From NCBI GenBank assembly GCA_964567795.1, contig CAZMOR010000323.1, positions 1 through 46,830 of the forward strand: a stretch of DNA of 46,830 nt. The letters run 5' to 3'. This DNA is from an uncultured Verrucomicrobiota bacterium. GTDB taxonomy: Bacteria; Verrucomicrobiota; Kiritimatiellia; CAIQIC01; Lenti-01. The translations under genes and the position numbers were made by a program. Positions 3,001 to 33,942 of the stretch are shown in pieces. Each line of letters starts with the position of its first letter. Positions within the stretch are counted from its first letter, which is position 1. The notes under the pieces were generated by a model that saw only the letters and a program-made list of their open reading frames with translations, did no database searches and was not told the DNA's origin.

Positions 3001-6000
3001 TGATGACCAACAGCACGTGGAACCTGTCGTGGGACACGAACGGAACCAACACTCCCAATTACGTCGGCGTCACCGTGGTCACCGGTGGGGTGGCGCGGGC
3101 GGACTTCAGCTACTGGCGCTACGGCAGCTATGCGATCGGCGACACGCTGTATGTCGACTGGGACGGCAACGGCGTGCAGAGCAACGCATGGGAGGAGGGG
3201 ATCTCCAATATCACGGTGTATCTCTATGAAGACGCCAACAGCAACGGCGTGGTGGACCTTGCCACCGATGCGTTCGTCGCCTCCACGGTTACGGCCAGCA
3301 ACGGATATTACGTCTTCACCAATCTGTTCGCAACCAACACATACCTCGTCTACGTGGATCTCGCCGACCCGGACCTGCCGGCAAACTATCTCATCACGGG
3401 GGATCCGTACGGCGCCAAGGACGCGCGCAGCGTGGTGACCCTCACCAACGCCAGCAATTACGCCCAGGACTTTGGATTCCAGCCTTACGGGAGCGGCGCG
3501 ATTGGCGACACGGTCTGGCGGGACCTCAACGCCGACGGGACGCAGTCCGGCGCACAGGAGACCGGAATTTCCAACATTCTCGTCAGCCTGTACGTGGACA
3601 TGAACAAAGACAACAACTATGTGCTGCTGCGCACCACAAACACGAGTTCGAGCGGCACCTATCTGTTCAGTTCGCTGCCGGACGGGAACTACCGCGTGGT
3701 GGTGGATTCCGCCGATACTGACCTCCCGCAAGACGCCTTCGGCAACGTGTATTATCCCAGCACGGCCACGACCAACCAGGTGACCATCAGCGGCGGCAGC
3801 ACCTATCTGGACGCCGATTTCGGCTTTGCTCCCTACGGCGCCATCGGCGACACGGTGTTCTGGGACGCCAACCGCAACGGCACGCAGGATTACAGCGAGA
3901 GCGACGTATCCGGCGCGGTGGTGCGGCTCTACTACGACGGGAACGGCAACGGCATTTATGATCCGGGCGAGACGCTGGCGGCCAGCGCCACCACCGACGT
4001 GGACGGCCTTTATCTCTTTGAAGGCCTGCTGCCGAGCAACTACGTGGTGCTGGTGGTGACCACGAACGGCCCGCTGTTCGGAACGGCCCAGACCGCCGAC
4101 CCGAACTCGGACGGCTATGCCTGCGCCGACACCAACAACCTGGTGCCGTGCGACGACCAGTACGGGTTGTATCTGAACAACGGCCAGAACTTCATGGGCG
4201 CGGACTTTGGCTACGATCCGCCCGGCGTGATCGGCGACTACCTGTGGGTCGACACCGACAACGACGGTGTGCAGGATGCCGGCGAGAGCGGCATTCCCTA
4301 CATTTCAGTGGTGCTGTATTCCAACGGCGTGGCCATCGCCACCAACGAGACGGATGCGGACGGCTACTACTATTTCTCCGGCCTGGCCGACGGCACCTAC
4401 GGCGTGTGGGTGGTGACCAACGACACGGACTTTCCGGCCGGGCTCACGAACACCTGGGCCGCGGACGGCACGTTCGACAATTACGCAACCAACATCGTGA
4501 TTTCCGGCGGTTCCGTGGCCTCCGTGGGCGGATATCCCTGTACCGGCTGCGACCTGTCGATCGACTTCGGGTATCGCTATTCGGGCAACAACAGCCTGAG
4601 CGGGACCATCGGATTCGACGCGGCACCCTTCGACGGCGTGATGAACGGCACGAACACCAGCGGCGTCGCGGCCGGCGAGGCGGCCTATGCCGGGGTCTCC
4701 GTTTATCTGTACCTGTGGAACGACGACGGGGACGGCACCGTCGAGGCCGGGGAGTATGTCTCGATTGCGTCGACGGCCACCGCCACCAACGGCGACTATT
4801 CCTTCACGGGCCTGCCCAGCGGCGACGGCAACGACAAGTACATCGTCGCCAGCTCCGCGCCGGAGGATTACCTGAAGCTCACGACCACCAACGGCTCGAT
4901 CGCCGGGGTGGGCGTGGTCGAGACAACCAACACGGCGGGCAACACGGTTTCGGCCTACCTGACCGTCAACATCGCTCCGGTCATCACCGGCATGGACTTC
5001 GCCTACCGTTCCACGAAGAACTATGACTATGGCGATCTGCCGGAACGCTACCAGACCCTGCTGCCGGACGGGGCACGGCACATCGTCAAGACCTCGAACC
5101 TGTTCCTGGGGGCCACGGTGGACGTGGAGAACAATGGCCAGCCTTCCGCGGGTGCCAACGGCGACGACCTCGCCGGCACGGCCGACGAGGACGGGGTCGC
5201 CATGGTCACCAGCACGATGTGGCACGACGGCACCACCGGCGGCACCGTGCGCGTGACCGTGGGCGCGGGCTCCGGCTGGCTGGTCGGCTACGTTGATTTC
5301 AACAACGACGGTGATTTGCTGGATCCGGGCGAAATGGTTTGCAGCCTGGCGGTGTCGAACACCGGCGGCAACGGGGCGGGCGTCTATACGAACACGTTCG
5401 ATGTTCCGTACGGCACCTTCTCGACCGCCAACTCCACGTCGCTCTATGCACGGTTCCGACTGTTTCCGGCGGAACCGTTCAGCCCCGAGCTGGCGTTTTC
5501 GGGCACGGCCGACAATGGCGAAGTCGAGGATTATCTCTGGCACCTGTCCGTAGTCGGCGACTACGTCTGGATCGATTCCGACGGCGATGGTGCGCAGGAT
5601 GCGGGCGAGCCAGCGCTGGCGGGCGTACGGGTGTTCATTGACCTCAACGCCGATGGCCTCTACCAGACCAATGAACCGGCCGCGACCACCGGCGAGGACG
5701 GTCTTTACGGCATCGGCGGGCTGGTTCCGGGAACCTACACGGTGGCGGTAGACACCAACACGCTCCCGATCGGAGTTTCGCAGACCTACGATTTCGACGG
5801 CATCGGCACTGCGAACAAGGCTTCCATCACCATCGCCACCCTCGGCGAATTCGTGACGGTGGCCGACTTCGGCTACCGGGGCGACGCCACTGTCGGCGAC
5901 CGGGCGTGGTTCGACGCCGACCGCGACGGCATTCAGGACGCCGGCGAAACCAACGGCATCGCCGGACTGCCCGTCGCGCTGCTGGACGCAGCATCCAACG

Positions 6001-9000
6001 TGGTTGTCACGACCACCACCGATGCCTCCGGCAACTATCTGTTTGCCAACATTCCGGCCGGAACCTATCTGGTCCGGTTCGACCTGCGGACCGTGACGAC
6101 CAATGCGAGCGTCACGCTGCCTGATCAGGGTGGCGACGATGCCCTCGACAGCGATGCGACATCGGGCGGAACCGGCGGCTTTGCCTACACGGCTGCGTTT
6201 GCCGCCGGGGCGGGCTCGACCAATTTGACCATAGATCTGGGATTGCGCACAACCTCCACCACGCGCGCGGAAATCGCCGAAGTCTGGGGCGAAGCCGCGG
6301 GGAATGGCGGGCGCATTGTCTGGCGTACCGTTTCGGAATGGAATACGGCCGGATTTGTGGTCTACCGTATCGATCCGGCCTCAGGCGTGGAAGTGCGCTT
6401 GAACGACGTCCTGGTGCCGTCAGCTTTCAATGCGGACGGCGCCACCTATGAACTGGCTGATCCAGAAGCCGTGGCGGGCGGAACCGGCAATTACCGCTTG
6501 GAAGAAATGGAGCTGACTGGTGGCACGCGGGACCTGGGCGCGCAGGCCATCACCTTCGCCCCTGCGCGACCGCGGGCGAAGGCTTTGAAAACTCTGTTGT
6601 CCCGCGAGCAACTATCCACGCCCCGGTTGGCTGGACCTTCGCCGGTTCTGAAAGTTCTGGTGCGGAATGAAGGCCTATATGGCGTTTCTCTGCAGGCCAT
6701 CGCCGCGGGCATGGGTCTCGCCCGGGCGGACGTGCAGGCACTAGCGGAGGCCGGCTCCCTGGAGATTTCGGAACAGGGGAAGGCGGTGCCGGTGATCTAC
6801 GATGCCGCCCGCTCGCGGCTGGTGTTCTATGGCCAGGCGACGGACAACTGGTACACGCGGGACAATGCCTATCTGATCAAGCAAGGTGCCGCCGTTGTGA
6901 TGACGCGGCGGGACCCCGGCGCCGCGGCCGGTGCATCCGTGCTGCCGGCCGTCATGGACTTTGAGGTCGACAAGTATCCGTTTGATAGCGCGGCCATTCG
7001 GCCCGCCGACTTCTACTACTGGGAGTACATTCTCAGCGGGACCAATGCGGCGGCAACCAAAACCTTCCCGCTGGATTTGACGGGATGCGCTGGCGATGTA
7101 ATCCTGACTGTACGGCTGCAGGGGTGGTCCAGCACGACAAACGACCCCGACCATCTAGCGGAGTTCAAATTCAACGGCGCCGGAACGGGCGCAGTCACCT
7201 TCGACGGTCAGGCCGCGGCGACGGCGGAACTGGTGATTCCCGCCGCTTCGGTGTCCAACGGCGTGAACACGCTCTCCGTGAAAGGCACGCTGCTGCCGGG
7301 CCGCGCATTCAGCTATTTCGTAGTGGACGGGATGGAAGCCGCCTTTACCCGCATGGTGGTGCCGGGGGCCGGGACGGCGCATTTCCTGGCGAACGGCGCA
7401 GCGGTGTCGGCGGCAGCGTTTGCGGAACCCCTGGCGGTAGCGTTGGACGCCAACGGCGTTCCGACCTGGCTCGCGGACGCCAACGGCAACTTGCCCGCCA
7501 AGGCTTGGGCAGCAGCAGCGGGCGACGCGCGCTATGCGGTGGCGGAAGCCGATGGCATCCCGTCGCTGACCCCCGAAGCGGTTGCGCCGGCGCCGTGGTT
7601 CCTGGCCGCTACCAACCGCATCGATTATCTGGTTCTGACCTCGCGCGCGCTGGCGAACGAGGCGCAAAAACTGGCGGATTACCGGGCCGGACAGGGGTTG
7701 CGCACCGGCGTGGTGACGTTCGAAGATGCCTGTGACTGGATGGCGGACGGCTTGCGCACACCGGAAGCGATTCCGGCCCTGCTGGCCTATGCGTCTTCCG
7801 TCTGGGCCGAAGCGCCGTGGATGGTGGTGCTGGCGGGCAACGGCCATTACGACTATCTCCAAGCCTTGAGCAACGAAGTGAACCATCTGCCGCCGTTGAT
7901 GATCCAGACCGCGGACGGCATATTCTCCTCGGACAACCTGCTGGCCGATGCGGATGGCGATGGCCTGCCCGACGCCGCCATTGGCCGCTTGCCGGCCCGG
8001 ACGACCAACGAGTTGGCTACGATGATCGCGAAGATCAAGGCATACGAGACGGATTTTGGTTCGGCATGGCAGAACAAGCTGATGTGGGCGGCGGATACGA
8101 ACGATGCCGCGGCCGGGGATTTTGCAGCGGCCAATGCGCGGCTGGCTGCGCTGGCAGATCCCGGGCGCACGAGCGTGTCCGTTGATTTGAATCTGCAATC
8201 CACCAATGCGGCCAAGACCGCGCTTTTAAACGGCTTTAAGGAAGGTGCCGGATTCATCCACTACACCGGCCACGGTGGAGTGAACTTCTGGAGCCCGAAG
8301 AAGCTGCTGACCGCGACGGATGTCAATGCCATGACCAATACGCGGCAGCCGGTGGTTGCGGCGTTGAGCTGCCTGGTGGGGCGGTACGAAGCACCGGCCG
8401 TGGACAGCCTGGGGGAATTGCTGCTGCGTCGGGCCAACGGCGGTGCTGTCGCTGTTTGGGGGCCTTCCGGTCTGTCGCGCAACAATCCGGCGACGGAATT
8501 GGGTGCGGCGTTCTATCGGGCAATTCTCGAGAATGGCGCCGGGACGCTGGGGCTGGCCGTCCTGCAAGCCCGCCGCAGCCTCTTGGGTAATGTGTTCTCG
8601 AGGGACACGTTAGCGGTATACAATTTGCTGGGCGATCCGGCCTTGCGCATTGCCGGCAACCTCGGCGGACAAGCGGCCGATGCCAGTTTTGCACAATGGC
8701 GCTGGCAGCGCTTCAGCCCCGCCGAGCTCGCCGATGCCGGCATCAGCGGTGCAACCGACGGCAATTTCTTCGAATATGCGATGGCGGGCGGCTACGAGGT
8801 TACAGCCGAATTGCCGGAATTCGGATACCCGCTGGCCATGTCCCGGTCGGCGGATGAACCGGGATTCATTTTGCGTTGGAAACGGCGGATCCAGCGGGAT
8901 GACATTGATTACCGTTTGTTTATCTCGGAGGATTTGGCACAATGGACCACTGAGCCGGCGGATGCCCGGACCGTGGGTGTGGAGCCGGACCTGGATGGTG

Positions 9001-9080
9001 TGATGGAAACCGTGCGCACGCGGGTGGACCGCCCGCAAGCGACGCGTATTTTCATTGGGGTCCAAGCCGTTCGTAAATAG
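3..9080 (+). CDS. Giant secreted repeat protein (5-prime partial, >3020 aa) with DUF11-like, SdrD-B/Cna-B-like and GEVED modules and a C-terminal peptidase C25 (gingipain-like) domain
   Basis: The frame is open from nt 3 to the listed TTG at 18, so the gene almost certainly starts upstream of the window. DUF11-like segments are present (LEVNKTVDKPFAQPGETLSFTIAYTNPGPV; LTLVKTLTSTNAIREGQNITF). There are about ten SdrD-B-like units and a GEVED motif (NGEVEDY, about nt 5514-5534). The C25-type catalytic motifs are FIHYTGHGG (His codon 8271-8273) and VAALSCLVG (Cys codon 8370-8372). No PEP-CTERM-like tail is seen. Confidence 0.85.
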   Translation, partial: KPDDDLWLNYSIWATAMSGATPLEADETRTVTMRNEISAMANKIFPNGANKVPQEYLDALAMYEPSWTNTADDGSPGTVIATEGVWYDLGNVGAGFDNNGDLVPDRNAWLQPVGDPGLFDSSCFRLVHTYALVIVKLTDGTEQIYNVEDQLYFENIPEDNNGAVGYVRYEFMAMRPGCSSTLTPYQEVASGYDNEKFNGDYGAFLGQGLTSLDAHLEVNKTVDKPFAQPGETLSFTIAYTNPGPVTVGDPEGGAPLVMREHIPHGTLYVGLSSGASNSLPSGVSSYTILYSTNNGTTWQAAEPADPTKITDVQWWLSDPLATNVAGSVKLQVTVTTNAGPFITNQACATIAGGADMACDETTTYVSGTNRLGDLVWADNGAGGGVLGNQMQDGTETGISNITVWLYYDANTNGFYDASDLYYASNTTSTTGYYMFTNLPDGKFVAVVDMRDPDLPVGYTPTTFTNLAADLDSARTNSAAVSFLTADFGFAPALTLVKTLTSTNAIREGQNITFNLAVSNNLPGNGAGGTYATTYAWPTNGYAKNTEFIGWTNTLGAPDGLYCSNYITGSTTFMYLSNFVAASTQTGTITKVELVRQRLVVPSIDSDDTAVLLVQQLSPATVLFSNNLLIASMTNGFIVDVITNSITSWANFATNISISLNAKKNSGGAGSGYLGYDAIGFRITSVSTGGTGTASTTLNPVPLTDQYDADKFQFVSAVPPQSTSTTNGSTPNSTGTLYWANLGPIYPGGTSTVAVTFRLLKPESYTNMLATNITWVTNATFQNGVPANTATSSVVVTQAPAAKVGDYIWRDLNADGIQNETNMGIAYVAVSITPPAGIDLGNGAGAAITNFTDASGYYSFESIPATGVYTVRVVTATLPGGSGTNTFDEDGVRDHTHAVYLDIYSTPSSTNNVHLTTDFGYQTGTTIEGTIWHDYDHGMETNREAGEDWLTNVTVYLCASPSPCGPGASIATNTTTTNGYFRFTGAYTGSYTVLVATNTGMMTNSTWNLSWDTNGTNTPNYVGVTVVTGGVARADFSYWRYGSYAIGDTLYVDWDGNGVQSNAWEEGISNITVYLYEDANSNGVVDLATDAFVASTVTASNGYYVFTNLFATNTYLVYVDLADPDLPANYLITGDPYGAKDARSVVTLTNASNYAQDFGFQPYGSGAIGDTVWRDLNADGTQSGAQETGISNILVSLYVDMNKDNNYVLLRTTNTSSSGTYLFSSLPDGNYRVVVDSADTDLPQDAFGNVYYPSTATTNQVTISGGSTYLDADFGFAPYGAIGDTVFWDANRNGTQDYSESDVSGAVVRLYYDGNGNGIYDPGETLAASATTDVDGLYLFEGLLPSNYVVLVVTTNGPLFGTAQTADPNSDGYACADTNNLVPCDDQYGLYLNNGQNFMGADFGYDPPGVIGDYLWVDTDNDGVQDAGESGIPYISVVLYSNGVAIATNETDADGYYYFSGLADGTYGVWVVTNDTDFPAGLTNTWAADGTFDNYATNIVISGGSVASVGGYPCTGCDLSIDFGYRYSGNNSLSGTIGFDAAPFDGVMNGTNTSGVAAGEAAYAGVSVYLYLWNDDGDGTVEAGEYVSIASTATATNGDYSFTGLPSGDGNDKYIVASSAPEDYLKLTTTNGSIAGVGVVETTNTAGNTVSAYLTVNIAPVITGMDFAYRSTKNYDYGDLPERYQTLLPDGARHIVKTSNLFLGATVDVENNGQPSAGANGDDLAGTADEDGVAMVTSTMWHDGTTGGTVRVTVGAGSGWLVGYVDFNNDGDLLDPGEMVCSLAVSNTGGNGAGVYTNTFDVPYGTFSTANSTSLYARFRLFPAEPFSPELAFSGTADNGEVEDYLWHLSVVGDYVWIDSDGDGAQDAGEPALAGVRVFIDLNADGLYQTNEPAATTGEDGLYGIGGLVPGTYTVAVDTNTLPIGVSQTYDFDGIGTANKASITIATLGEFVTVADFGYRGDATVGDRAWFDADRDGIQDAGETNGIAGLPVALLDAASNVVVTTTTDASGNYLFANIPAGTYLVRFDLRTVTTNASVTLPDQGGDDALDSDATSGGTGGFAYTAAFAAGAGSTNLTIDLGLRTTSTTRAEIAEVWGEAAGNGGRIVWRTVSEWNTAGFVVYRIDPASGVEVRLNDVLVPSAFNADGATYELADPEAVAGGTGNYRLEEMELTGGTRDLGAQAITFAPARPRAKALKTLLSREQLSTPRLAGPSPVLKVLVRNEGLYGVSLQAIAAGMGLARADVQALAEAGSLEISEQGKAVPVIYDAARSRLVFYGQATDNWYTRDNAYLIKQGAAVVMTRRDPGAAAGASVLPAVMDFEVDKYPFDSAAIRPADFYYWEYILSGTNAAATKTFPLDLTGCAGDVILTVRLQGWSSTTNDPDHLAEFKFNGAGTGAVTFDGQAAATAELVIPAASVSNGVNTLSVKGTLLPGRAFSYFVVDGMEAAFTRMVVPGAGTAHFLANGAAVSAAAFAEPLAVALDANGVPTWLADANGNLPAKAWAAAAGDARYAVAEADGIPSLTPEAVAPAPWFLAATNRIDYLVLTSRALANEAQKLADYRAGQGLRTGVVTFEDACDWMADGLRTPEAIPALLAYASSVWAEAPWMVVLAGNGHYDYLQALSNEVNHLPPLMIQTADGIFSSDNLLADADGDGLPDAAIGRLPARTTNELATMIAKIKAYETDFGSAWQNKLMWAADTNDAAAGDFAAANARLAALADPGRTSVSVDLNLQSTNAAKTALLNGFKEGAGFIHYTGHGGVNFWSPKKLLTATDVNAMTNTRQPVVAALSCLVGRYEAPAVDSLGELLLRRANGGAVAVWGPSGLSRNNPATELGAAFYRAILENGAGTLGLAVLQARRSLLGNVFSRDTLAVYNLLGDPALRIAGNLGGQAADASFAQWRWQRFSPAELADAGISGATDGNFFEYAMAGGYEVTAELPEFGYPLAMSRSADEPGFILRWKRRIQRDDIDYRLFISEDLAQWTTEPADARTVGVEPDLDGVMETVRTRVDRPQATRIFIGVQAVRK
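1125..6240 (+). repeat. Tandem array of about ten diverged SdrD-B/Cna-B-like domain repeats (~110-125 codons each) inside the giant CDS
   Basis: A recurring protein-level unit starts near nt 1125, 2409, 2780, 3133, 3498, 3840, 4226, 4600, 5553 and 5890. The pattern is [AV][IV]GDxxWxDxNxDGxQ..E.G[IL]..[IV]xVxLY followed by TDxxGxYxFxxLxxGxYxV. The array is interrupted by the GEVED-containing segment at about 5020-5540. The repeats are diverged at DNA level and the boundaries are approximate. Confidence 0.7.
7620..8651 (+). other. Peptidase C25 (gingipain/PorU-type cysteine peptidase) domain of the giant CDS
   Basis: The domain runs from IDYLVLTSRALANEAQKLADYRAGQGL through GRLPARTTNELATMIAKIKAYE, HYTGHGG (His) and ALSCLVGRYE (Cys), and ends at LLGDPALRI. 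Order and spacing are as in C25-family enzymes. Boundaries are approximate. Confidence 0.75.
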
Positions 9081-9085
9081 GAAAG

Positions 9086-9379
9086 ATGAACACGTCCAGC
9101 ACATACCGGATAAAAGGCCGGGTCGTCCTGCGCCGGATTGGCGAAGACCGCCTGCTGGTGCCGGTGTCGGGCGATGCCGCACGCGAAAATTGCGTGTTTC
9201 CGATCAATGAAACCGGCGAGTTCATCTGGGAACACTTGACGCAAGGCCTGCCCCTCGACCAAGTCGCGCAAGCTTTGGCGGCTGCGTTTGAGGTGTCACC
9301 TGCGGAAGCGCTATCCGATTGTCGCCAATTCGCGGGCGACCTGCTGGCCCAGCACCTGCTGGAAGAGGTTGGGCCATGA
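9086..9379 (+). CDS. PqqD-family protein (RiPP recognition element / peptide chaperone)
   Basis: The product is 97 aa with a typical PqqD pattern: VLRRIGEDRLLVP...FPINETGEFIWEHLTQGLPLDQVAQALAAAFEVSPAEALSDCRQFAGDLLAQHLL. It starts 5 nt after the giant-gene stop (TAG 9078-9080). Its stop overlaps the next ATG (ATGA at 9376-9379). Confidence 0.85.
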   Translation: MNTSSTYRIKGRVVLRRIGEDRLLVPVSGDAARENCVFPINETGEFIWEHLTQGLPLDQVAQALAAAFEVSPAEALSDCRQFAGDLLAQHLLEEVGP

Positions 9380-10473
9380 TCTGTCCCATGAGCGATGCCG
9401 CAACATTGGAATGGACCGCCGGTTTCCGTGCCCGGGCGGCAAAAGCCCGCATGCCGATTGCCGCCACGTTGGAATTGACCCGACGCTGCAACTTGCGCTG
9501 CACGCACTGTTATCTGGGCAACCAGGCGGAGCAGCATCTGCGGCGTGGCGCTGAACTCGGAACCGAGGCTGTGAAGTCGGCCTTGTCCGAGTGGGCCGAG
9601 GCCGGCTGCCTATACCTCACCCTGACGGGTGGCGATCCGATGCTGCGCCCGGATTTTGCCGAGATCTACCGGCACGCGCGGGAACTGGGGCTGGTGGTCT
9701 CTGTTTTCTGCAACGGGACGTTGGTGACGGACGAAGTGGTTGCCTTGTTTCGCGAGTGGCCGCCACGCAAGGTGGAGGTCAGCCTTTATGGTGCGACGCC
9801 GGCAGTTCATGAGGCCATCACCGGGGTTCAGGGTTCGCACGCGCAGGCCTGGGCGGGGATTCGCCGCCTGCAAGCGGAGGGAATCCGGGTCGAGTTGAAG
9901 ACCATGTTGATGACAACGAACCGGCATGAGACCGAAAAAATGAGACGCCAGGCCGAGGCCGCCGGCTTGAACTTCCGCCATGATGCGGCCCTTTTCCCTT
10001 GCCTGGATGACGGCTCCGTCCGGCCGCTGGAATTCCGGGTTGCGCCGGCCGAAGCGGTTTGCGAGGACCTGGCGACACCTGAACGGCGCCGGAACTGGCA
10101 GGAAAGAATTGCTCGGACCGCTGGCCATGCCGAGGATGAGCGCCTGTACACCTGTGCCGCCGGCCTGACGGCTTTCCATGCCGATCCCTTTGGGGGGCTG
10201 TCGCCTTGCCTGATGGCGGTTGATTACATGTGCCGGCCGAATGAGCGGTCCTTCCGCGAGATTTGGAACGGCGAATTGAAAGCCATCCGGGAGCGCCGGC
10301 GAACGCATTCGGGGGGAAGTTTCAGTGGCCCCTTGCGCGGCGCCTGCACCCATTGCCCGGCCTTCAACCGCCTGGAAACCGGCGACGAAGAACGGGATTC
10401 CGACTACATGCAGCAAACCACTTTGTTGAGATACGAGGCGGCCATGCGCGCCGAAGATAGTGAGAAGACATGA
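9376..10473 (+). CDS. Radical SAM enzyme with C-terminal SPASM/twitch-like auxiliary-cluster region (putative peptide maturase)
   Basis: CNLRCTHC is a CX3CX2C motif (Cys codons 9487, 9499, 9508). LTLTGGDPMLRP is a GGEP-like motif. The C-terminal region has CAAGLTAFHADPFGGLSPC (CX13GX4C) and then ACTHCPAF (CX2C). I chose the ATG at 9376 (ATGA overlap with the PqqD stop) over the TTG at 9319 given in the ORF track. An ATG at 9388 is an alternative start. Confidence 0.85.
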   Translation: MICPMSDAATLEWTAGFRARAAKARMPIAATLELTRRCNLRCTHCYLGNQAEQHLRRGAELGTEAVKSALSEWAEAGCLYLTLTGGDPMLRPDFAEIYRHARELGLVVSVFCNGTLVTDEVVALFREWPPRKVEVSLYGATPAVHEAITGVQGSHAQAWAGIRRLQAEGIRVELKTMLMTTNRHETEKMRRQAEAAGLNFRHDAALFPCLDDGSVRPLEFRVAPAEAVCEDLATPERRRNWQERIARTAGHAEDERLYTCAAGLTAFHADPFGGLSPCLMAVDYMCRPNERSFREIWNGELKAIRERRRTHSGGSFSGPLRGACTHCPAFNRLETGDEERDSDYMQQTTLLRYEAAMRAEDSEKT

Positions 10474-10652
10474 ACCCAACGACCCGATATTCAACCAACA
10501 GCGATGAACAACCGGTCCGGCGGCCTTACGAGAAGCCGGAGATCAAGCGTGTCGACCTGGCCATGGCCGAAACCCTGTCGCAGGGATGCAAGCTGGAGTC
10601 GGACAACGCCTGTGTCGGGCCGCCGATCACGGCCTATGAGGGAGGTTCGTGA
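10470..10652 (+). CDS. Candidate RiPP precursor peptide (60 aa)
   Basis: Sequence: MNPTTRYSTNSDEQPVRRPYEKPEIKRVDLAMAETLSQGCKLESDNACVGPPITAYEGGS. Its start shares ATGA with the rSAM stop (10470-10473) and its stop shares GTGA with the kinase start (10649-10652). It carries a YEKPEI leader-like motif, two Cys and a C-terminal Ser. I recognise no homology; the call rests on position, coupling and motif anatomy. Confidence 0.6.
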   Translation: MNPTTRYSTNSDEQPVRRPYEKPEIKRVDLAMAETLSQGCKLESDNACVGPPITAYEGGS

Positions 10653-11560
10653 GACCGGCCGGTCATTTGAGCATCGGTCCGGTACGCTTTGAGCTACGAA
10701 CGCCAGACCAGGCTGAAGTGCGGTATTCCGCTCCGGCCTATGCGGGATTTTTCTCCACTTCCGGGGCGGTTGCGGGGTTGGCGCCGCTGCTGGAAATGCA
10801 GGTGGAAATCTCAGCGCGAGCGGAGGCCATTCCGACCAAGCCACCGCTGTGGAGTGGGGGAAAAAACTGGGCGATTTGGGAGGACGGTTCAGAATTGATC
10901 TGTTGCGCGGGATTCCACGGCCGGGAAAAGGCCCGTTATCGATGCCGGCTGGCTCGCGACCTCCGGTCTGCCGCATTAGCTGTTGATCCGCAGTTCTACC
11001 CCGCCGATTATTTGGAATCGCCTTTAACATATCCGCTCGATCAGATTTTGTCGTGGGGGCTGCTTTCACGCCTGGGCGGAACCGTGATGCATGCCGCGGT
11101 AGCCGTGCGCGCGGGAGTTGGCCTGGTGTTTACCGGCCGGAGCGGAGCCGGTAAATCCACGATCTCGGCGCTATGCCATGCGGCCGGCTGGCGGATCCTG
11201 AATGATGACCGGGTCATGGTATATCGGCGAAACGATGCCTGGAGAGTGGCGGGAACGCCGTGGCACGGGTCCGGGCGTTTCGCCGAGGCTGATGATCTTC
11301 CGCTGGGGGGGATATATTTTCTGCAGCAAGCGCCCGAAGACCGCATGGAAACGATGACCGCATCCGAATCCCGCCTGGCCCTGTTGGACGTGGCCGGGGT
11401 CCCGTGGTTCGAAAACAGCTGGTCACAGGGGGTGCTGGAAGGCTTGGCCAAGCTCGTTCGGGATGTCGAAATGCGCCGCTTTTCATTCACCAAATCAGAA
11501 ACAGCCGTCAAGGTTGTTGCGGACGATCAAGAATCCGTCCGGGCAGGTAAATGTGCATGA
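10649..11560 (+). CDS. HprK C-terminal-domain-like P-loop kinase (HprK-related kinase)
   Basis: MHAAVAVRAGVGLVFTGRSGAGKSTISALCHAAGWRILNDDRVMVY closely parallels the HPr kinase/phosphorylase catalytic core (H-G-x-x-v...GxSGxGKS...G..L..DD). The P-loop lies at about nt 11134-11160. It uses a GTG start overlapping the peptide stop. The product is 303 aa. Confidence 0.8.
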   Translation: MRPAGHLSIGPVRFELRTPDQAEVRYSAPAYAGFFSTSGAVAGLAPLLEMQVEISARAEAIPTKPPLWSGGKNWAIWEDGSELICCAGFHGREKARYRCRLARDLRSAALAVDPQFYPADYLESPLTYPLDQILSWGLLSRLGGTVMHAAVAVRAGVGLVFTGRSGAGKSTISALCHAAGWRILNDDRVMVYRRNDAWRVAGTPWHGSGRFAEADDLPLGGIYFLQQAPEDRMETMTASESRLALLDVAGVPWFENSWSQGVLEGLAKLVRDVEMRRFSFTKSETAVKVVADDQESVRAGKCA

Positions 11561-12063
11561 ACAATTTGGCGAAGAGAGAGAAGCGTCAAACGAAACGGCC
11601 GCATGACGAATCTCAACTGCCCCATCCAGCGGCTGCGAGGGGTATCGAGGCGGCAAATTTTTCCATCGCGGCAAACCCATTCTGCAAGCCCCAAAATATT
11701 CTCCAAGTCAACCCACTCGCCACCTGTACAGGCCGCATCACCGGCCATAAAAAGCCGGTTTGTTCGTTTCTTGTTAATTGCGATTCTATGCAGTGCAAAT
11801 CTTCCACAAGTTTTATACAATACGATGCTTCCAAGGTGGAGTGTGCAATTCGCCAAAGGTTTAATCGATACGGTTTCTCCATTTTGGATGGTTGGATTCA
11901 TGCTCGGGCCCAAAGCTTGAAAGCGTACAGGGGTATCGGAGCGCAGAAGCGTTTCGACGATATCACGAGCGACTGGTGCAGGCGGTGACATGTTCCAAGC
12001 GAAGAAGGTATAGCAGGCCATGAACAAGACAAGCATCGTTTTCCAGGCGGGCTGCGCCGCCAT
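11527..12063 (-). CDS. S26-family signal-peptidase-like protein, ER/SipW-type (Ser/His)
   Basis: There is an N-terminal hydrophobic anchor (KTMLVLFMACYTFFAW). ALGPSMNPTI carries the Ser nucleophile (codon 11902-11904). GSIVLYKTCGRFALHRIAI has His where bacterial P-type SPases have the Lys of the KR motif (His codon 11788-11790). G+C is visibly lower than in the neighbours. The start is ambiguous: ATGs at 12063, 12036, 12021 and 11991, the first three overlapping the divergent gene that starts at 12020. The 3-prime end overlaps the kinase 3-prime end by 34 nt. Confidence 0.7.
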   Translation of the reverse strand: MAAQPAWKTMLVLFMACYTFFAWNMSPPAPVARDIVETLLRSDTPVRFQALGPSMNPTIQNGETVSIKPLANCTLHLGSIVLYKTCGRFALHRIAINKKRTNRLFMAGDAACTGGEWVDLENILGLAEWVCRDGKICRLDTPRSRWMGQLRFVMRPFRLTLLSLRQIVHAHLPARTDS

Positions 12064-13909
12064 GATGTGGCTGGCTGGTTCCGCGCCGGTCTTGGCGGCC
12101 TTGCCGACCGGTGAAGCTGTCGTGGCCGCAATGACCGGGCAGGCTCAGGTGCGGGTTTTCACCGGTCCCGTGCATGAGGGCCGGACGGAAGTGAAGGACC
12201 TTTTCGAAGGCGCATCGGTGGGGGAGACCAGTCGGATCATGACCGGTCGGGATGGGCGTTTGTGCATGGTGTGTTCACCCGGGGCCATCCTGTGCGTGGC
12301 GCCGAACACCGAATTTACGATTCAGCAATTGCGCCACACGGCGGAAGGCTTGCCCCGGAACGGAGAGGATTTGATCCGGCGCATTCATTTGGATTTGCAC
12401 AAAGGCCGGCTTCGCGTACATGCCGGGGTGCCCACCGCCACCCTGGATATTCAGGTGGAAACCCCGGCCGGTAGTGTTGTCGCCCAAGGCGGCTCATTTA
12501 TCGTGGCGCAGGATGAGCGTGGAGTATGGCATGTGTCGAGCGAGGCCTATGATCAGGAAGTCATTCCGCGCGGAAACGCACGCACGGCATTGAAGGCGGG
12601 CACTTCCATCCACTTTGCCGGCGGCGAGGCCGGGGGCGACATGGTGGTGCCAGAAGCCGTCGGCGAGCAGGCCGGCCTCTACCAATTCGAACTATGCAGC
12701 TCCTTTTTCCAGGATCTCGAACCTTTTGTGCTCTCGGATCGGCCGTTTGACCGGCAGGGGCTTGATGAATACCTGGGGTCCGGGCGTTCCCTGTCGGTTG
12801 CGGATGATGGCGCCCTGGTGACCGATGTGAGCCCGTCGATCCGGCCCTCCGTGGCGGCAACCCTGCCGGGAAAGCTCCCGCCATTCCCGGAAACCGGGGC
12901 CGGCATGCGTTGGGCGGAGCCGCGCATCTGGAAGTGGTTCGACGAAATCGGTCCCGTGAAGGGCGTCAATTACATTCCGCGCACGGCCGTGAATTCAGTA
13001 GAGATGTGGATGAAAGACACATTTGATCCCCAGACGATTGATCAAGAGCTGGGGTGGGCGCATGACGCTGGCTATACCGCCATCCGCGTCCAGCTGCAGT
13101 ATGCCGTTTGGCAGCATGATCCAGATGGATTCCGCGACCGGGTGGAACAATTGCTGCGGCTGGCGGCGAAGCACGGCCTGCGGGTTGTCCCGGTTCTTTT
13201 CGACGACATGAATTTGGCGGGCCAGGCGCCGGCGTTCGGAACACAACCGGAACCTGTGCCGGGCGTATATAATTCGCGGTGGGTGCCGAGTCCCGCTCCG
13301 GAAGAAGTCAAGAGCCGGACAAGCTGGCCGGAATTGGAAGAATACGTCAAGGACATGGTCGGCAAGTTCCGCCGGGATCAACGCGTGTTGTATTGGGATC
13401 TGTATAACACCGCGGGCAACAGCGGGCTCGGCGAGGAGTCCTTGCCGCTCATGGACCAGGCTTTCGGTTGGGCCCGGGAACAGGAACCGTCCCAGCCCCT
13501 GGCCGTGCCGGCTTGGAATGAGTTCGGCAGTGCCATGACGGCGCACCAATTGGAACGCTCCGATTTGGTTACCTTCCACAGTTTCGATACCGCGGAGGGC
13601 ATGGAGGCCCGGATTCAGCTTTTACAGCGCTATCACCGGCCGATCATCTGCTCCGACTGGCTGATGCGTCAAACCGGTTGCGATTTCAAGTCCGTGCTGC
13701 CGATCTTTGCCGCCAACGGGGTGGGCTGGTTCAACCAGGGGTTGGTCAACGGCAAAACCCAGCTGGGGGTTCAACAGGAGCAATATCGTTCGGAAGCAGA
13801 TCCGGATCTCTGGCAGCAGGATGTTTTGAAGGCGGATGGAACTCCCTATAACGCCCGGGAAGTGGAGCTGATCCAGGGCTTCCGGTATCTGGATGTGCCC
13901 AACCGATGA
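12020..13909 (+). CDS. Secreted fusion protein: N-terminal FecR-like domain plus C-terminal clan GH-A-like (TIM-barrel glycosidase-like) domain
   Basis: A signal-peptide-like N-terminus is present (MNKTSIVFQAGCAAMMWLAGSAPVLAALP). The FecR-like pattern is GASVGETSRIMTGRDGRLCMVCSPGAILCVAPNTEFTI. The C-terminal half (KGVNYIPRTAVNSVEMW...GYTAIRVQL...VLYWDLYNTAGN...RPIICSDWLMR) resembles proteins annotated as cellulase-family or 1,4-beta-xylanase-like. The family assignment is from memory only. Confidence 0.55.
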   Translation: MNKTSIVFQAGCAAMMWLAGSAPVLAALPTGEAVVAAMTGQAQVRVFTGPVHEGRTEVKDLFEGASVGETSRIMTGRDGRLCMVCSPGAILCVAPNTEFTIQQLRHTAEGLPRNGEDLIRRIHLDLHKGRLRVHAGVPTATLDIQVETPAGSVVAQGGSFIVAQDERGVWHVSSEAYDQEVIPRGNARTALKAGTSIHFAGGEAGGDMVVPEAVGEQAGLYQFELCSSFFQDLEPFVLSDRPFDRQGLDEYLGSGRSLSVADDGALVTDVSPSIRPSVAATLPGKLPPFPETGAGMRWAEPRIWKWFDEIGPVKGVNYIPRTAVNSVEMWMKDTFDPQTIDQELGWAHDAGYTAIRVQLQYAVWQHDPDGFRDRVEQLLRLAAKHGLRVVPVLFDDMNLAGQAPAFGTQPEPVPGVYNSRWVPSPAPEEVKSRTSWPELEEYVKDMVGKFRRDQRVLYWDLYNTAGNSGLGEESLPLMDQAFGWAREQEPSQPLAVPAWNEFGSAMTAHQLERSDLVTFHSFDTAEGMEARIQLLQRYHRPIICSDWLMRQTGCDFKSVLPIFAANGVGWFNQGLVNGKTQLGVQQEQYRSEADPDLWQQDVLKADGTPYNAREVELIQGFRYLDVPNR

Positions 13910-15180
13910 GAAGGACCCGGCTCATCTCAGGCCTCTTCGCCGCGATGGCGGTGGCGGATTCTGTCACCGTTTGGGCTGCCAGCGACAGCTATGCCTCTGG
14001 ATTCTATACGCGGGGAGTGGCGGCGGCGGCCAACATTGACCAGGGCAGCGCGGTGATGGAACCCTTCTATATTCCGGCCCCGACCGGGGCGCTGCTGCCG
14101 CGCATCAGCCTGGCGGTGGAACAGGATGACAATGTTTTCCTCGACCCGACCAATGCAACCGCCAATACCACGATCTCGCTGGTCCCCGGACTTTTGGGGA
14201 TCTACGGCCGGCCCACGGCCAACCATCTATATGCCGACTACGGCATGATCATTCCTGTATATGAAAGTGAAGACGGGCTAAGCGACCGCCCCAGCTATCT
14301 TCTGCGTCTGGGCGGTGTCTATCAAACGGGCAAAAGCCAGATCGCTGCCCAGGGCGGATATCGGCGCATCGAGGATGTGGACACGGTGGTGGGTGCGCGT
14401 ATAGCCAAGCAGGACTGGCTTGGTGAATTCGGGGTGGAAAGCCGGATCACGGGCAAATCCAGCCTCGGCCTGCAAGGCCGGGCCGAGGCCCATGTGTTTG
14501 ATGATGCCTTGTATATTGATTACAACCGCTACTATGGCGCCGGGCGGTTGTATCACCGGGTTTCCGCCAAGAGCCAGGCGTTCATCCAGGGTGGCGTGGG
14601 TCGCGATGACCCGCAGGACTCCACCGGCACCGCTGCGGCCGCCGATTTCTACGACCTGTCCCTGGGGGTGCGGGGTAAACAATCCCCCAAATTCAATTCT
14701 ACCGGCCGCGTGGGATATATGTGGCGGAATTATGACGAAGAGGACCGCGGGGATTATTCCCATTGGATTGCCTCCCTGCAGGCGGAAAGCACGCCTTTCG
14801 GCCTGACCACTTTTTCCGGCGAGGTCCTGGCCGATATCCGGCCAGCCATTGATTCCGCGGACACGGATGTGATTGACCAGGGCCTTGTGCTGGGTGCCGC
14901 CCGGCGGCTGTTTATCGAGCGGCTGCGGGGCAATCTCTCGGCGACGCTCGGGCAAATTGATTATTCCGGCGCACGAGATTCGGAATCCGAAAACGGCCGT
15001 ACCGATCGCTACTGGGGATTCTCCGCCGGGGTGGATTGGTGGACCAAACAGCGCTTTTCGCTGGGACTGGCTTATTCCTACATGCGGCGAGAGGGCAGTG
15101 TGGATGCGGATCAGGCGACACAAGATGCCACTTCCTACGAAGTGGGCCGCTGGACCGTGCGCGCGAGCTGGAACTATTGA
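13906..15180 (+). CDS. Outer-membrane beta-barrel protein associated with polysaccharide export
   Basis: It has a signal peptide (MRRTRLISGLFAAMAVADSVTVWA) and alternating-polarity strand-like segments throughout (Y/G/R-rich). The C-terminal WTVRASWNY ends in an aromatic residue, as in OMP beta-signals. The start overlaps the upstream stop (ATGA at 13906), and the gene lies directly upstream of wza/wzc. Confidence 0.65.
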   Translation: MRRTRLISGLFAAMAVADSVTVWAASDSYASGFYTRGVAAAANIDQGSAVMEPFYIPAPTGALLPRISLAVEQDDNVFLDPTNATANTTISLVPGLLGIYGRPTANHLYADYGMIIPVYESEDGLSDRPSYLLRLGGVYQTGKSQIAAQGGYRRIEDVDTVVGARIAKQDWLGEFGVESRITGKSSLGLQGRAEAHVFDDALYIDYNRYYGAGRLYHRVSAKSQAFIQGGVGRDDPQDSTGTAAAADFYDLSLGVRGKQSPKFNSTGRVGYMWRNYDEEDRGDYSHWIASLQAESTPFGLTTFSGEVLADIRPAIDSADTDVIDQGLVLGAARRLFIERLRGNLSATLGQIDYSGARDSESENGRTDRYWGFSAGVDWWTKQRFSLGLAYSYMRREGSVDADQATQDATSYEVGRWTVRASWNY

Positions 15181-15232
15181 CCGCCTGTATTCCGGCATTC
15201 CCATGCAGCCGCGTTTTTGCTAGAAATACAAC

Positions 15233-15904
15233 ATGGAACGGCATTGGTTCAGGACAATCATCGGCGCAAGTGTTTTGGGTTTATGGGCGGCCTGTGCGCC
15301 GGGATGCGCCCATGCGCCGGTGCCGCTGCCGCCGGAGGCCTCCCTGACCCGCGCGGAGGCGGCGCCCGGTGCGCAGGTGATGACAAATACCGCCCCCCGG
15401 GAATATGCCCTGCAGGCCGGGGACGAGATTGATTTGCAGGTTTATCGCGAACCGGACATGTCGGGGACTTTCAAGATCAGCCCTTCCGGCGAGATCCGCC
15501 ATTCCCTGATCGGTACCGTGCCGCTGGTCGGGAAAACCCTGGAAGAGGCGGAAGCCTATATCACCAAGAAGCTGGGGAAGGACTATTTAGTCAATCCCCG
15601 GGTGGTCATCAAGCTGCTCTCCACCCAGAGCTCCCAGATTGTCGTCATGGGGGAAGTGGAAAAGCCTGGAGTTTATCCCTTGCCTCCGGGGGAGCCCATG
15701 ACCCTTTTGCAGGCGATTGCGGTTGCCGGCGGGTTCACCGAACTGGCAAGTCCAGACCGGGTTCGGATCGTCCGCCGCCTGGAGGGCGGCCGCCAGACCA
15801 CCCTCAAAGTTCGTGTTTCGGATCTTTTGGGCGGCAAGGGCCGGCAACAAGACCTGTCCTTGGAACCGAATGATGTAATCATGGTTCCGGAAGTGGTTTT
15901 TTAA
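15233..15904 (+). CDS. wza: Polysaccharide export protein, Wza/Poly_export + SLBB type
   Basis: EYALQAGDEIDLQVYREPDMSGTFKISPSGEIRHSLIGTVPLVGKTLEEAEAYITKKL..YLVNPRVVIKL is Poly_export-like. VVMGEVEKPGVYPL...TLLQAIAVAGGFTELASPDRVRIVR is SLBB-like. Confidence 0.85.
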   Translation: MERHWFRTIIGASVLGLWAACAPGCAHAPVPLPPEASLTRAEAAPGAQVMTNTAPREYALQAGDEIDLQVYREPDMSGTFKISPSGEIRHSLIGTVPLVGKTLEEAEAYITKKLGKDYLVNPRVVIKLLSTQSSQIVVMGEVEKPGVYPLPPGEPMTLLQAIAVAGGFTELASPDRVRIVRRLEGGRQTTLKVRVSDLLGGKGRQQDLSLEPNDVIMVPEVVF

Positions 15905-15919
15905 GGAGGCCGGACAGCC

Positions 15920-18076: not shown

Positions 18077-19398
18077 AGGCGTTGCGCCATTTCTATTTTC
18101 TCCCGGCCTTGCTGGTTATGTTGGTTGTTGCCGCCGGGCATACTTGGTGGTCCGGAGAGGAGATTGGCTGGCTTCTGCCCGGAGTGGCGTTCATTTCGCT
18201 GGCGGTCTGCTGGTCGCTGCCCGGCCGTATTTGGGTGGCGGGAACGGTGATTTTACTGCTGATTGCAGTCTATGCCTGCAATCCGTCCCACCGCTGGGTG
18301 GACCGTCTGGGACTCGAGGCGATCCGCTACGTGGCCGGGCTGCCGGCTTCCGCATATCCGGCGGGCAGTTGGCAGGCGGGCGGCATGGCGCTGGCGATGC
18401 TGGCGGCGTATGGCCTGGCCTTCCAGCTTTCGGAAAACCAAGTCTGCTGGCTGCAGGGATTCGTGACGTTGGCCGCCGCCGCCATGGCCTTGCTGGTCTT
18501 GTCGCAGCGCTTGGAGCCCAAGTTGTTCCCGGTGTTTCCGCACACCGGCCTCTTTGTGAATGAAAACCATTTTGCGGTTTTTGCGAACCTGGTGCTGCCG
18601 GTCGCGTTGGCGCAGGCCGCGCGTTCGCATTTCCGCGCAGTACAAGACGGCCGGCCTGCAAGTCCGGCAGGAATTCAACTGCTGATCGCCGCCCTGCTGG
18701 GTGGCGCCGTGGTTCTGAGCCATTCGCGGGCCGGCATCCTGGTCATGCTGCTGGTGGTGGTGGCCGGCGCCGTTTGCTACGGCGGACTCGTGCATTTGCA
18801 TCCTTTTGCGGGCGCTGCCCGCCATTACGGCTGGCGTTGGATGGCGGCGGGCACCATCCTGGCGGTGTTGTCTTTGGCCGTGATGTCGTTTGCGCGGGAA
18901 TGGCATCAGGCGGGGGATATCCGGCGGGAGTTGGATTTCCGCTGGGGCATAGTGAAGGACACCGCCGCCATGTGCAAGGTCCGGCCGGTTTGGGGGATGG
19001 GGCCGGGAACATTCCCAGTCGTATATCCATATTATCAATCTCCGGCCGATGCGACCCGTATGATCCGGCATGCACATTGCGAGCCGGTTGAATTCGTGGC
19101 GGAATACGGCTGGGTCGGCGGCGGCACGGTACTCCTGGCCGTCGGTTGGGCGCTTTCGGCCCGGAAGCAAAAATCGCGCCACCGTGAAATCGTGCCGGCA
19201 TTTGCCGATTTAGAACGGCGTTTTTGGGGCATGGGATTGATCGCCGGCGGCTTCCACTGTTTGGTCGATTTTCCGCTGCGGGATCCGTTGATTGCCTTAA
19301 TGGCTGCGACGTGGGCCGGAGTTTGGGCTGGGCAGCGGCCCGCGCCTGCCGGGGCCGGCTGCGCCAACCCGGGGCTGGCAGAGGAAGCGCATGACTAG
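18073..19398 (+). CDS. O-antigen ligase/polymerase-family membrane protein (Wzy_C-type)
   Basis: The protein is polytopic, with LSHSRAGILVMLLVVV and GMGPGTFPVVY...H.EPVEFVAEYGWVGG motifs typical of Wzy_C/WaaL-like proteins. I chose the ATG at 18073 (ATGA overlap with the wzc stop) over the upstream start in the ORF track. Confidence 0.75.
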   Translation: MKALRHFYFLPALLVMLVVAAGHTWWSGEEIGWLLPGVAFISLAVCWSLPGRIWVAGTVILLLIAVYACNPSHRWVDRLGLEAIRYVAGLPASAYPAGSWQAGGMALAMLAAYGLAFQLSENQVCWLQGFVTLAAAAMALLVLSQRLEPKLFPVFPHTGLFVNENHFAVFANLVLPVALAQAARSHFRAVQDGRPASPAGIQLLIAALLGGAVVLSHSRAGILVMLLVVVAGAVCYGGLVHLHPFAGAARHYGWRWMAAGTILAVLSLAVMSFAREWHQAGDIRRELDFRWGIVKDTAAMCKVRPVWGMGPGTFPVVYPYYQSPADATRMIRHAHCEPVEFVAEYGWVGGGTVLLAVGWALSARKQKSRHREIVPAFADLERRFWGMGLIAGGFHCLVDFPLRDPLIALMAATWAGVWAGQRPAPAGAGCANPGLAEEAHD

Positions 19399-27634: not shown

Positions 27635-27675
27635 CAACCGGGGCCGGAGCCCGGGATGTCATTTTGTTCCAGCCC

Positions 27676-33940: not shown

Positions 33941-33942
33941 GC

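Follow-up and report, generated by a model that had tools for sequence, protein, structure and literature searches.

What is an open reading frame (ORF) of only 60 amino acids (aa), lodged between the genes for a radical S-adenosylmethionine (SAM) enzyme and a kinase-like protein, likely to encode, and is it a gene at all? The question is raised by the 46,830-nucleotide contig CAZMOR010000323.1 (GenBank assembly GCA_964567795.1) of an uncultured bacterium of the Kiritimatiellia (Verrucomicrobiota), referred to here over its whole length as the window, and the ORF lies at 10470-10652 of its forward strand. In this article, I will argue from sequence comparison that it is probably the precursor (A) peptide of a ribosomally synthesized peptide with post-translational modifications (RiPP), and that it belongs to a conserved six-gene cassette with the order C25-peptidase surface protein, PqqD, radical SAM/SPASM enzyme, peptide, ScmC/HprK-like phosphotransferase and S26B signal peptidase. 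A preliminary description of the same DNA, made from the letters alone, had already proposed a peptide with a leader readable by PqqD, a Cys-bearing core and a terminal Ser that a kinase could target, and the comparisons below support this central proposal at the sequence level; it had omitted two conserved partners, the upstream C25 giant protein and the minus-strand S26 peptidase, in whose place it had a spurious 145-aa ORF.

The peptide gene and its conservation

Translation of 10470-10652 (forward strand) gives MNPTTRYSTNSDEQPVRRPYEKPEIKRVDLAMAETLSQGCKLESDNACVGPPITAYEGGS, closed by the stop codon at 10650-10652, and both this sequence and every coordinate in the preliminary description proved exact on re-translation and position check. 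There are only two Cys residues, as had been said, C40 (10587-10589) and C48 (10611-10613), and the last residue, S60, is encoded by 10647-10649. Equally correct were the two 4-nt overlaps that join the gene to its neighbours, an ATGA at 10470-10473 where the radical SAM ORF ends at 10473, and a GTGA at 10649-10652 where the ORF of the kinase-like protein starts with the GTG at 10649. Since 14 kb of this DNA, with a GC content of about 60%, hold 132 ORFs of at least 40 aa, a 60-aa ORF is by itself little evidence, and the case for a gene therefore depends on comparative data. The Shine-Dalgarno sequence before the peptide is weak, a scan of 8.9-12.3 kb returned no promoter-like sites and terminator-like matches at background level, and the peptide has no signal sequence.

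Searching 5.8 billion proteins recovered 70 homologues of 47-63 aa, all without a name and with Kiritimatiellia metagenome-assembled genomes (MAGs) as the sole organism labels; the gene occupies the same position in about 20 species-level genomes, all of them Kiritimatiellia or "Verrucomicrobia" MAGs, and the 4-nt overlaps at both of its ends recur in most Kiritimatiellia loci. When these close homologues are aligned, residues 1-16 vary and the peptide is then near-fixed from R17 to S60, with Y20, P23, D29, L30, E34, T35, G39, C40, K41 and P51 invariant, C48, G59 and S60 each at least 90% conserved, position 25 being I, L or V, and position 56 changing among Y, F, L, W, H and R. By the Nei-Gojobori method, applied to 19 loci (171 pairs), the proportions of synonymous and nonsynonymous differences in the peptide frame are 0.66 (pS) and 0.17 (pN), and the median ratio of nonsynonymous to synonymous rates (dN/dS) is 0.13; within Kiritimatiellia the leader (0.14) and the core (0.15) differ little. 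Four of the five other frames give values >1, and the fifth, an antisense frame that shares third positions, gives 0.26. The window peptide gene is a coding sequence of the translated type under purifying selection.

The translation that the preliminary description had read from the overlaps is supported by the conservation of the peptide, in 70 close homologues and a profile superfamily of 474 proteins, and by the low dN/dS, and of the findings by which that description would have let itself be refuted, neither a lack of conservation nor a lack of purifying selection is seen. A chance ORF, or an untranslated spacer between the radical SAM and kinase genes, might have been suspected from the frequency of spurious ORFs of similar size in this GC-rich DNA, from the lack of any family model that matches the peptide and from the weak Shine-Dalgarno sequence in the window, but the comparative data refute it: selection acts on this frame, hundreds of homologues agree in their fixed length and in their motifs, the overlaps at start and stop are kept, and a perfect GGGAGG Shine-Dalgarno sequence stands 5 nt before the peptide ATG in the distant locus L029. 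I would give this explanation practically no probability.

The wider family was explored with a profile, which matched 110 clusters (50% identity, E <= 0.001), nearly all of 45-73 aa, among 1.84 billion cluster representatives, and 474 proteins in the 5.8-billion set, every one unnamed or "hypothetical". Its leader has the consensus [RK]xPYxKPx[LIV]xR[VI][DE]LAxxE[TV]L[SAG]xG, in which YxxPx[ILVFM] is found in 227 of 229 distinct peptides and a Cys-Lys pair stands exactly 20 residues past the Tyr in 220 of 227. Counted from this Tyr (100%), the position table reads P 100%, [LIV] at Y+5, L 100% at Y+10, E 98% at Y+14, T 72% or V 25% at Y+15, L 94% at Y+16, S, A or G 95% at Y+17, G 95% at Y+19, C 100% at Y+20 and K 100% at Y+21, so that the leader is near-fixed from Y-3 to Y+21, followed by a hypervariable core of 16-53 residues with two Cys in 157 of the 229 peptides and three in 70. 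The peptides end in Ser in 220 of 229 cases (96%) and in Thr in seven (3%), and a Gly-Ser end is present in 210 (92%); in the many members that were detected via the leader alone, the match stopping well before the C-terminus, this end is independent of the search.

In the window peptide, these features correspond to Y20-x-x-P23-x-I25 (10527-10544), T35-L36 and the small-x-Gly triplet S37-Q38-G39 of the leader, and, in the core, to C40-K41 (10587-10592), which is invariant, to C48 as the second Cys and to G59-S60 (10644-10649) at the C-terminus. The YxxPx[LI] motif and the conserved terminal Ser of the preliminary description have both stood, with Y20 and P23 invariant, position 25 held by I, L or V, and Thr the only tolerated replacement of the Ser; its Cys-x7-Cys core stands in part, in that C40 is invariant and a second Cys always present, but the spacing of seven is limited to the window's own subtype and other two-Cys cores have 5 to 9. 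Within Kiritimatiellia the leader is fixed and at least five core types follow it (CKLESDxxCVGPPITAYEGGS; CKLEGECNVPPIFIRDEAGS; CKMTDPCPIEEPEFFEPGS; CKVSGDGGECDPDPGFADPTSELGS; CKLAGVCDDPFEPISEAGS), and a distant 3-Cys subfamily has the consensus PYEKPRLRTIELAAEEVLAxGCKT…C-x4-5-C…GS. A conserved leader joined to a variable core across homologues is what is expected of the precursors of RRE-dependent (RiPP recognition element-dependent) radical SAM RiPPs, and it is what is found here. Scanned against Pfam and NCBIfam, the window peptide and 106 diverse members gave no meaningful match, only scattered chance ones, and a match to StsA (0.006) was set aside as weak and composition-driven.

There is one peptide gene copy per locus, and the tandem copies suggested by a pattern match were artefacts. 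On the contig shared by loci L004 and L005, a second and shorter copy of the peptide gene (51 aa; L005, 10001..10156) stands by itself some 12 kb away from the main cassette, flanked on either side by a gene for a giant C25 adhesin. The peptide of L020 has a C25 gene on one side and Wzc on the other, no maturase intervening, and that of L022 lies ahead of PqqD.

The cassette around the peptide

The order PqqD, radical SAM, peptide, ScmC is kept in about 20 Kiritimatiellia genomes, where synteny runs on through the convergent S26 gene, a 629-aa protein, an outer membrane protein (OMP), an exporter, Wzc and Wzy, and PqqD, radical SAM and HprK-like proteins flank the peptide in well over 100 loci. 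A small gene beside, and co-oriented with, genes for a radical SAM enzyme and a PqqD-type RRE is the generic picture of a RiPP precursor. The distant 3-Cys subfamily has the same arrangement in L029, L031 and a Joint Genome Institute (JGI) contig; the L029 organism has a low GC content and an S15 protein that clusters with those of Thermodesulfovibrionales MAGs, and its proteins match those of the window with identities of 44% (radical SAM), 27% (kinase-like protein) and 28% (S26). In a metagenome scan the subfamily was met at 314 loci, and among the 80 retained, counting only where flanks were long enough, a radical SAM gene is present in 70/72, PqqD in 39/41, ScmC in 51/53, S26 in 29/35 (on the same strand, directly after ScmC) and an upstream C25-domain gene in 24/30, figures that are slight underestimates because L108, an apparent miss due to a parsing artefact, is actually complete. 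All-against-all clustering of the ORFs from 27 long loci left only five recurring protein families (C25, PqqD, radical SAM, ScmC and S26), with a single radical SAM enzyme per locus and no transporter, second maturase or canonical RiPP protease among the recurring families. The peptide, in other words, co-occurs with five partner proteins in at least two phyla, and Table 1 gives their places in the window.

Table 1. Positions of the putative precursor gene, its parts and its neighbours in the window
Feature	Position	Strand	Remarks
Giant fibrillar-adhesin-like surface protein, 3020-aa ORF	18..9080	+	SdrD_B 1e-126, Peptidase_C25 5e-70 (Pfam)
PqqD-family RRE, 97 aa	9086..9379	+	PqqD 1e-12 (Pfam), passing the cutoff
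Radical SAM enzyme, 365 aa, reduced SPASM/twitch-like C-terminal domain	9376..10473	+	Pfam Radical_SAM 6e-24
Putative precursor peptide gene, 60 aa	10470..10652	+	4-nt overlap with each neighbour
Variable N-terminal segment, M1-V16	10470..10517	+	Sequence and length unconserved (homologue alignment, locus peptides)
Conserved leader, R17-G39, RRPYEKPEIKRVDLAMAETLSQG	10518..10586	+	Invariant or near-invariant alignment columns
Core, C40-S60, CKLESDNACVGPPITAYEGGS	10587..10649	+	Variable-core part of the putative precursor
ScmC-family HprK-related P-loop phosphotransferase (predicted), 303 aa	10649..11560	+	GTG start; Pfam PF27840 on all orthologues
S26B (archaeal/endoplasmic reticulum/SipW-type) signal-peptidase-I-like protein, 178-aa ORF	11527..12063	-	NCBIfam TIGR02228 7e-7; convergent with the kinase gene
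Context: 629-aa protein and large polysaccharide locus	12020..40000	+	Linked to the cassette in Kiritimatiellia only

The PqqD protein, which is found in 22 related loci, has its best NCBIfam matches among the B1-type chaperones of lasso peptides (NF033530 9e-7, NF033536 5e-5), then ScmD and the PqqD of pyrroloquinoline quinone (PQQ) synthesis, all below cutoff. The ATG of the radical SAM gene at 9376 overlaps the PqqD stop as ATGA, and the enzyme carries, invariant in 23-25 loci, the CX3CX2C motif (C38, C42, C45) and four C-terminal Cys (C260, C278, C324, C327), with a SPASM match of 17.6 bits that falls below the Pfam cutoff. By sequence, its nearest solved structures are SkfB (7e-15) and PqqE (6c8v, 1e-14), and it misses all NCBIfam equivalog cutoffs by a wide margin. 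The Kiritimatiellia enzymes have only a CxxC where the L029 orthologue (714..1796) has CxxCx6CxxC, which may point to the loss or remodelling of one auxiliary Fe-S site in this lineage.

The kinase-like protein matches HprK_rel_A (2e-9), ScmC (1e-8) and HprK_rel_B (1e-7) in NCBIfam, each below cutoff, aligns at its P-loop with HprK/P (2qmh/1jb1, 3e-4) and keeps the motifs GRSGAGKST, LNDDR and GTPWHG invariant. Its AlphaFold2 model (predicted local distance difference test, pLDDT, 93.8; predicted template modelling score, pTM, 0.90) is matched by Foldseek to the ATP-dependent phosphoenolpyruvate carboxykinase (ATP-PEPCK) and to the catalytic domain of HprK/P, so on its model the protein is a phosphotransferase of the PEPCK/HprK fold. 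The curated cutoffs of the Scm, GeoRSP, lasso, PQQ, mycofactocin, sactipeptide and ranthipeptide models are reached by no enzyme of the cassette.

As for the two partners added here, the giant protein carries DUF11/CLIPPER-type domains besides 10 SdrD_B repeats and has, towards its C-terminus, a Peptidase_C25 domain (aa ~2537-2878, nt ~7626-8651) in which the His/Cys dyad motifs (YTGHGG, AALSCLVG) are intact; the protein matches the NCBIfam model of the PorU sortase of the type IX secretion system (T9SS) at 2e-44, below cutoff, and the nearest solved structure of the domain is PorU (6za2, 2e-15), then Lys-gingipain. Its gene ends 5 nt ahead of the PqqD gene, and in every locus of the L001-L031 set with enough flank a C25-domain gene ends directly upstream of either PqqD or the peptide, the peptide gene itself coming next in L005, L020 and L022. 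The presence of this gene ahead of the cassette in two distant lineages suggests a functional link between the protease/sortase domain and the peptide. In the S26 protein the motifs G-x-S-M-x-P, H-R and D-A-A are conserved in 19 loci, and the L029 orthologue lies above the TIGR02228 cutoff (57.6 vs 51.85) with a weak match to SipW. The window ORF shares 34 nt with the 3' end of the kinase gene and 44 nt with the 5' end of the plus-strand gene that comes next (12020), and the true start of the protein may be an internal Met. The 145-aa plus-strand ORF at 11551..11988 was rejected as a shadow of this conserved minus-strand gene.

A proposed pathway and its rivals

How might such a precursor be processed? 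By analogy with lasso systems, PqqD is likely to bind the lasso-type leader and would then present the peptide to the two enzymes; with S37 taken as the start of the core, Y20xxP23xI25 occupies positions -17 to -12 and T35 position -2, and in the Bsf system YxxPxL likewise lies at -17 to -12, while Bradymonadales lasso precursors carry Thr, or Ile/Val, at -2 (PMC10368454). The radical SAM enzyme, whose nearest relatives make either Cys thioethers or C-C links, would act on the core, most likely with C40 and C48 serving as sulfur donors for thioether cross-links of the sactionine or ranthionine type, an outcome that I would place a little short of an even chance, and another radical cross-link involving the invariant C40-K41 is a possible alternative product. 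The ScmC/HprK-like enzyme would phosphorylate the side-chain hydroxyl of Ser60, which I consider somewhat better than an even prospect. Of the inferred steps this one has the strongest indirect support, since linear lasso precursors with little else in common are phosphorylated at their C-terminal Ser by HprK homologues (PMC8498205), since the PqqD-type RRE greatly stimulates the kinase of the Bsf system (PMC10368454) and since Thr alone is tolerated in place of the terminal Ser. The leader would then have to be removed, and the S26B peptidase is a tentative candidate for cutting at the small-x-Gly site S37-Q38-G39, before C40; [SAG]-x-G ahead of Cys-Lys agrees with the -3/-1 rule for type I signal peptidases. 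The product would work in concert with the secreted C25-domain adhesin and, in Kiritimatiellia, also with the polysaccharide machinery next to it, although both the cleavage between G39 and C40 and any role of the C25 domain are speculative.

Several points weigh against this pathway. The chemistry of the radical SAM enzyme, of the kinase and of leader removal is drawn by analogy, and it is not transferable by orthology because no cassette enzyme reaches the cutoffs of characterised maturases; the Kiritimatiellia radical SAM enzyme, moreover, has only four C-terminal Cys left, where a full SPASM domain would have more, and neither an exporter nor a canonical RiPP leader protease is among the genes of the cassette in the 27 long loci. 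The Kiritimatiellia core has a dN/dS as low as that of the leader, which is not typical for an antimicrobial RiPP and gives a hint of a structural or housekeeping function. The pathway does not account for the link to the C25 protein, and the S26B peptidase might serve the secreted giant protein instead, as SipW serves TasA.

Could the peptide rather be the source of a redox cofactor of the PQQ or mycofactocin type, excised after a radical SAM cross-link between Tyr and Glu or a C-terminal decarboxylation? A PqqD partner, MftC (97 bits) and the PqqE structure among the better matches of the radical SAM enzyme, a single peptide copy per locus and a core that is very conserved within Kiritimatiellia would all suit such a precursor, and the preliminary description had seen a resemblance to PqqA in the leader and an echo of PQQ and mycofactocin chemistry in the Y56-E57 pair. 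Neither likeness survived comparison: Y56 is freely replaced by F, L, W, H or R, the core lacks any invariant aromatic residue, a Glu-x3-Tyr is missing, the peptide ends in Gly-Ser, not Val-Tyr, and no PqqA model, nor any other model in NCBIfam or Pfam, matches the peptide. Over the superfamily the core is hypervariable in sequence and length, the scores against MftC (cutoff 265 bits) and PqqE (81 vs 381) fall well short, and genes like PqqB/C/F or MftB/D/E do not recur in the cassettes of the 27 long loci. With Y56 variable, a Gly-Ser end and no accessory genes in the window, the PQQ and mycofactocin readings were rejected, and a cofactor precursor seems very improbable.

A closer comparison is with the phosphorylated lasso peptides (PadeA/K; BsfA/B1/K), which share with the window a discrete PqqD-type RRE, a YxxPxL motif about 17 residues before the core, T, V or I at -2, an HprK-homologous kinase and a precursor that ends in Ser; their kinase, stimulated by the RRE, phosphorylates this Ser at its hydroxyl while the precursor is still linear (PMC8498205, PMC10368454). 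Might the window peptide be a precursor of this kind, like those of paeninodin or BsfA, with its cyclase and B2 protein encoded elsewhere? The register of the leader agrees, with YxxPx[LIV] at -17 to -12 and T or V at -2 (T 72%, V 25% at Y+15) for a core starting at S37 (PMC10368454), as do the nearness of the window PqqD to lasso B1 chaperones, the pairing of an HprK-like kinase with a C-terminal Ser, and, in the window subtype, E43 and D45 at core positions 7 and 9. Against it, the 46.8-kb window contains no asparagine-synthetase-like cyclase and no transglutaminase-like B2, these two are not among the recurring families of the 27 long loci, and the maturase slot is taken by the radical SAM/SPASM enzyme; the 3-Cys subfamily lacks an acidic residue at core positions 7-9, and the 106 diverse members match curated NCBIfam lasso precursor (or other) families only by scattered chance. 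The window core differs further in its invariant Cys-Lys and additional Cys, the cassette in its C25 giant protein and S26B peptidase, and the kinase in belonging to the Pfam ScmC family while staying below the lasso and HprK_rel cutoffs. The lasso reading was rejected because the cyclase and B2 are not present, and I regard it as highly improbable, even a shade less credible than a cofactor. The paeninodin leader, with YSKPSLEVLDV, would be a further parallel to that of the window, and is a lead only.

The SynChlorMet system (TIGR04248-04251) also combines a PqqD-like protein, a radical SAM/SPASM enzyme and an HprK-like protein of the ScmC family (PF27840 on the orthologues of the window kinase), but the window cassette has one radical SAM enzyme where SynChlorMet has two, and adds a clear precursor family and C25 and S26B genes. 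Membership was rejected on scores of 35 vs 125 (ScmC), 16 vs 100 (ScmD) and 84 vs 400 (ScmE/F), also below cutoff in L029 and L031; no precursor is known to have been identified for that system. With the sacti- and ranthipeptide systems (SkfB, AlbA, StsB, PapB and the QhpD type) the cassette shares an RRE-dependent radical SAM enzyme with an auxiliary-cluster domain and a small Cys-bearing precursor, SkfB being the nearest structure, and Kiritimatiellia cores are rich in both Asp and Glu, the acceptors in ranthipeptide and QhpC-type chemistry. It departs from them in having two or three Cys per core, four C-terminal Cys in the radical SAM enzyme and an added kinase step, and from bacteriocin loci in having no typical ABC exporter or protease. 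No characterised thioether-maturase family claims the enzyme of the window (AlbA 74 vs 850, StsB 73 vs 625, SkfB 66 vs 300) or that of L029 (PapB 58 vs 340), and its likeness to thioether maturases is one of superfamily level only.

The remaining readings give the C25 domain the leading part. The peptide may chiefly be a partner of this domain, as a trans-acting pro-peptide, inhibitor or substrate whose interaction is tuned by the radical SAM enzyme and the kinase, and not a free natural product, which would agree with the C25-domain gene directly upstream in every L001-L031 locus with enough flank, with L005, L020 and L022, where the peptide gene comes right after a C25 gene and either precedes the maturases or lies apart from them, with the intact dyad motifs and with a cassette that has no exporter. 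The idea is compatible with a RiPP precursor and not opposed to it, five or six of 30 distant loci have no detectable C25 gene nearby, and the C25 protein is secreted (a signal peptide is present in L050) whereas the peptide has no signal sequence; as the main account of the peptide I consider it improbable.

Bolder still, the cassette might be a new protein-sorting or surface-anchoring system in which the cross-linked, Ser-phosphorylated peptide is the linker or acceptor. The PorU-like C25 domain would then use the peptide in a sortase-type transpeptidation, with Lys41 or an N-terminus made by S26B as nucleophile, and in Kiritimatiellia the terminal phospho-Ser could be phosphoglycosylated, coupling the adhesin to the polysaccharide of the adjacent locus; this would explain the C25 gene ahead of the cassette, the lack of an exporter and the conservation of the core within a lineage. 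PorU, to whose structure the C25 domain comes nearest, removes a C-terminal signal by cleavage and joins the cargo to a glycolipid at the surface, and the tapA-sipW-tasA arrangement offers a second parallel, SipW being a dedicated S26B-type peptidase encoded beside the secreted fibre protein it serves. In the window type, by contrast with the stand-alone PorU, the C25 domain sits inside an adhesin-like protein of 1,500-4,100 aa and no other T9SS components were seen, and no sorting system is known to use a radical SAM-modified peptide. I hold this scenario to be a long shot, a little less probable again than a simple partnership with the C25 domain.

Returning to the RiPP precursor, literature searches, including searches with literal leader strings, gave no description of the cassette system, there is no Pfam or NCBIfam model for the peptide, and all sources label the genes hypothetical or miss them. 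What appears to be new is an RRE-dependent radical SAM pathway of RiPP type with the leader and kinase logic of the phosphorylated lasso peptides, that is, a lasso-type leader/RRE/kinase module recombined with a radical SAM maturase. The peptide offers a concrete and testable candidate substrate for the widespread, uncharacterised PqqD/radical SAM/HprK-like (ScmC-type) cassettes, which occur at hundreds of loci in metagenomes from anaerobic sediments, wetlands and digesters and in at least the Kiritimatiellota and a Thermodesulfovibrionales-like lineage, and an annotation model could be built on the motif YxKPxhxR[VI][DE]L…E[TV]L[SAG]xGCK…C…GS-COOH. The association of a RiPP-type pathway with giant adhesins that have isopeptide domains and a PorU-like protease domain is without precedent, and may point away from antibiosis and towards construction of the cell surface.

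The neighbouring DNA

Polysaccharide genes are tied to the cassette only in Kiritimatiellia and are near it in just 1/22 long distant loci. The 629-aa protein (12020..13909, plus strand) follows the cassette directly in all Kiritimatiellia loci, with 49-68% identity, or 34% over a partial match in one of them; it has a weak FecR match only, and no relative among solved structures. Behind it, on one strand (13906..40000, plus), runs a polysaccharide locus with a BBP2_2/EpsL-like OMP, a Wza-like exporter, a Wzc-like tyrosine kinase, Wzy_C, a Wzm/Wzt ABC transporter, a WecA-like initiating glycosyltransferase and many GT2/GT4 enzymes (at least 10 glycosyltransferases), together with methyl-, acetyl- and acyl-transferases. 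The combination of Wzy/Wzc-type and Wzm/Wzt parts raises the possibility of two routes of export, or of a composite locus.

Two further ORFs, one of 551 aa (30650..32305, plus strand) and one of 873 aa (44015..46636, minus strand), have no Pfam match and may be novel proteins or GC-driven shadow ORFs. The gene for the tRNA thiolase MnmA (41297..42508) marks the end of the glycan locus, and the plus strand of 18000..40000 shows a strongly negative AT skew, down to -0.32, over the glycan genes, probably due to the T-rich codons of membrane and glycosyltransferase proteins.

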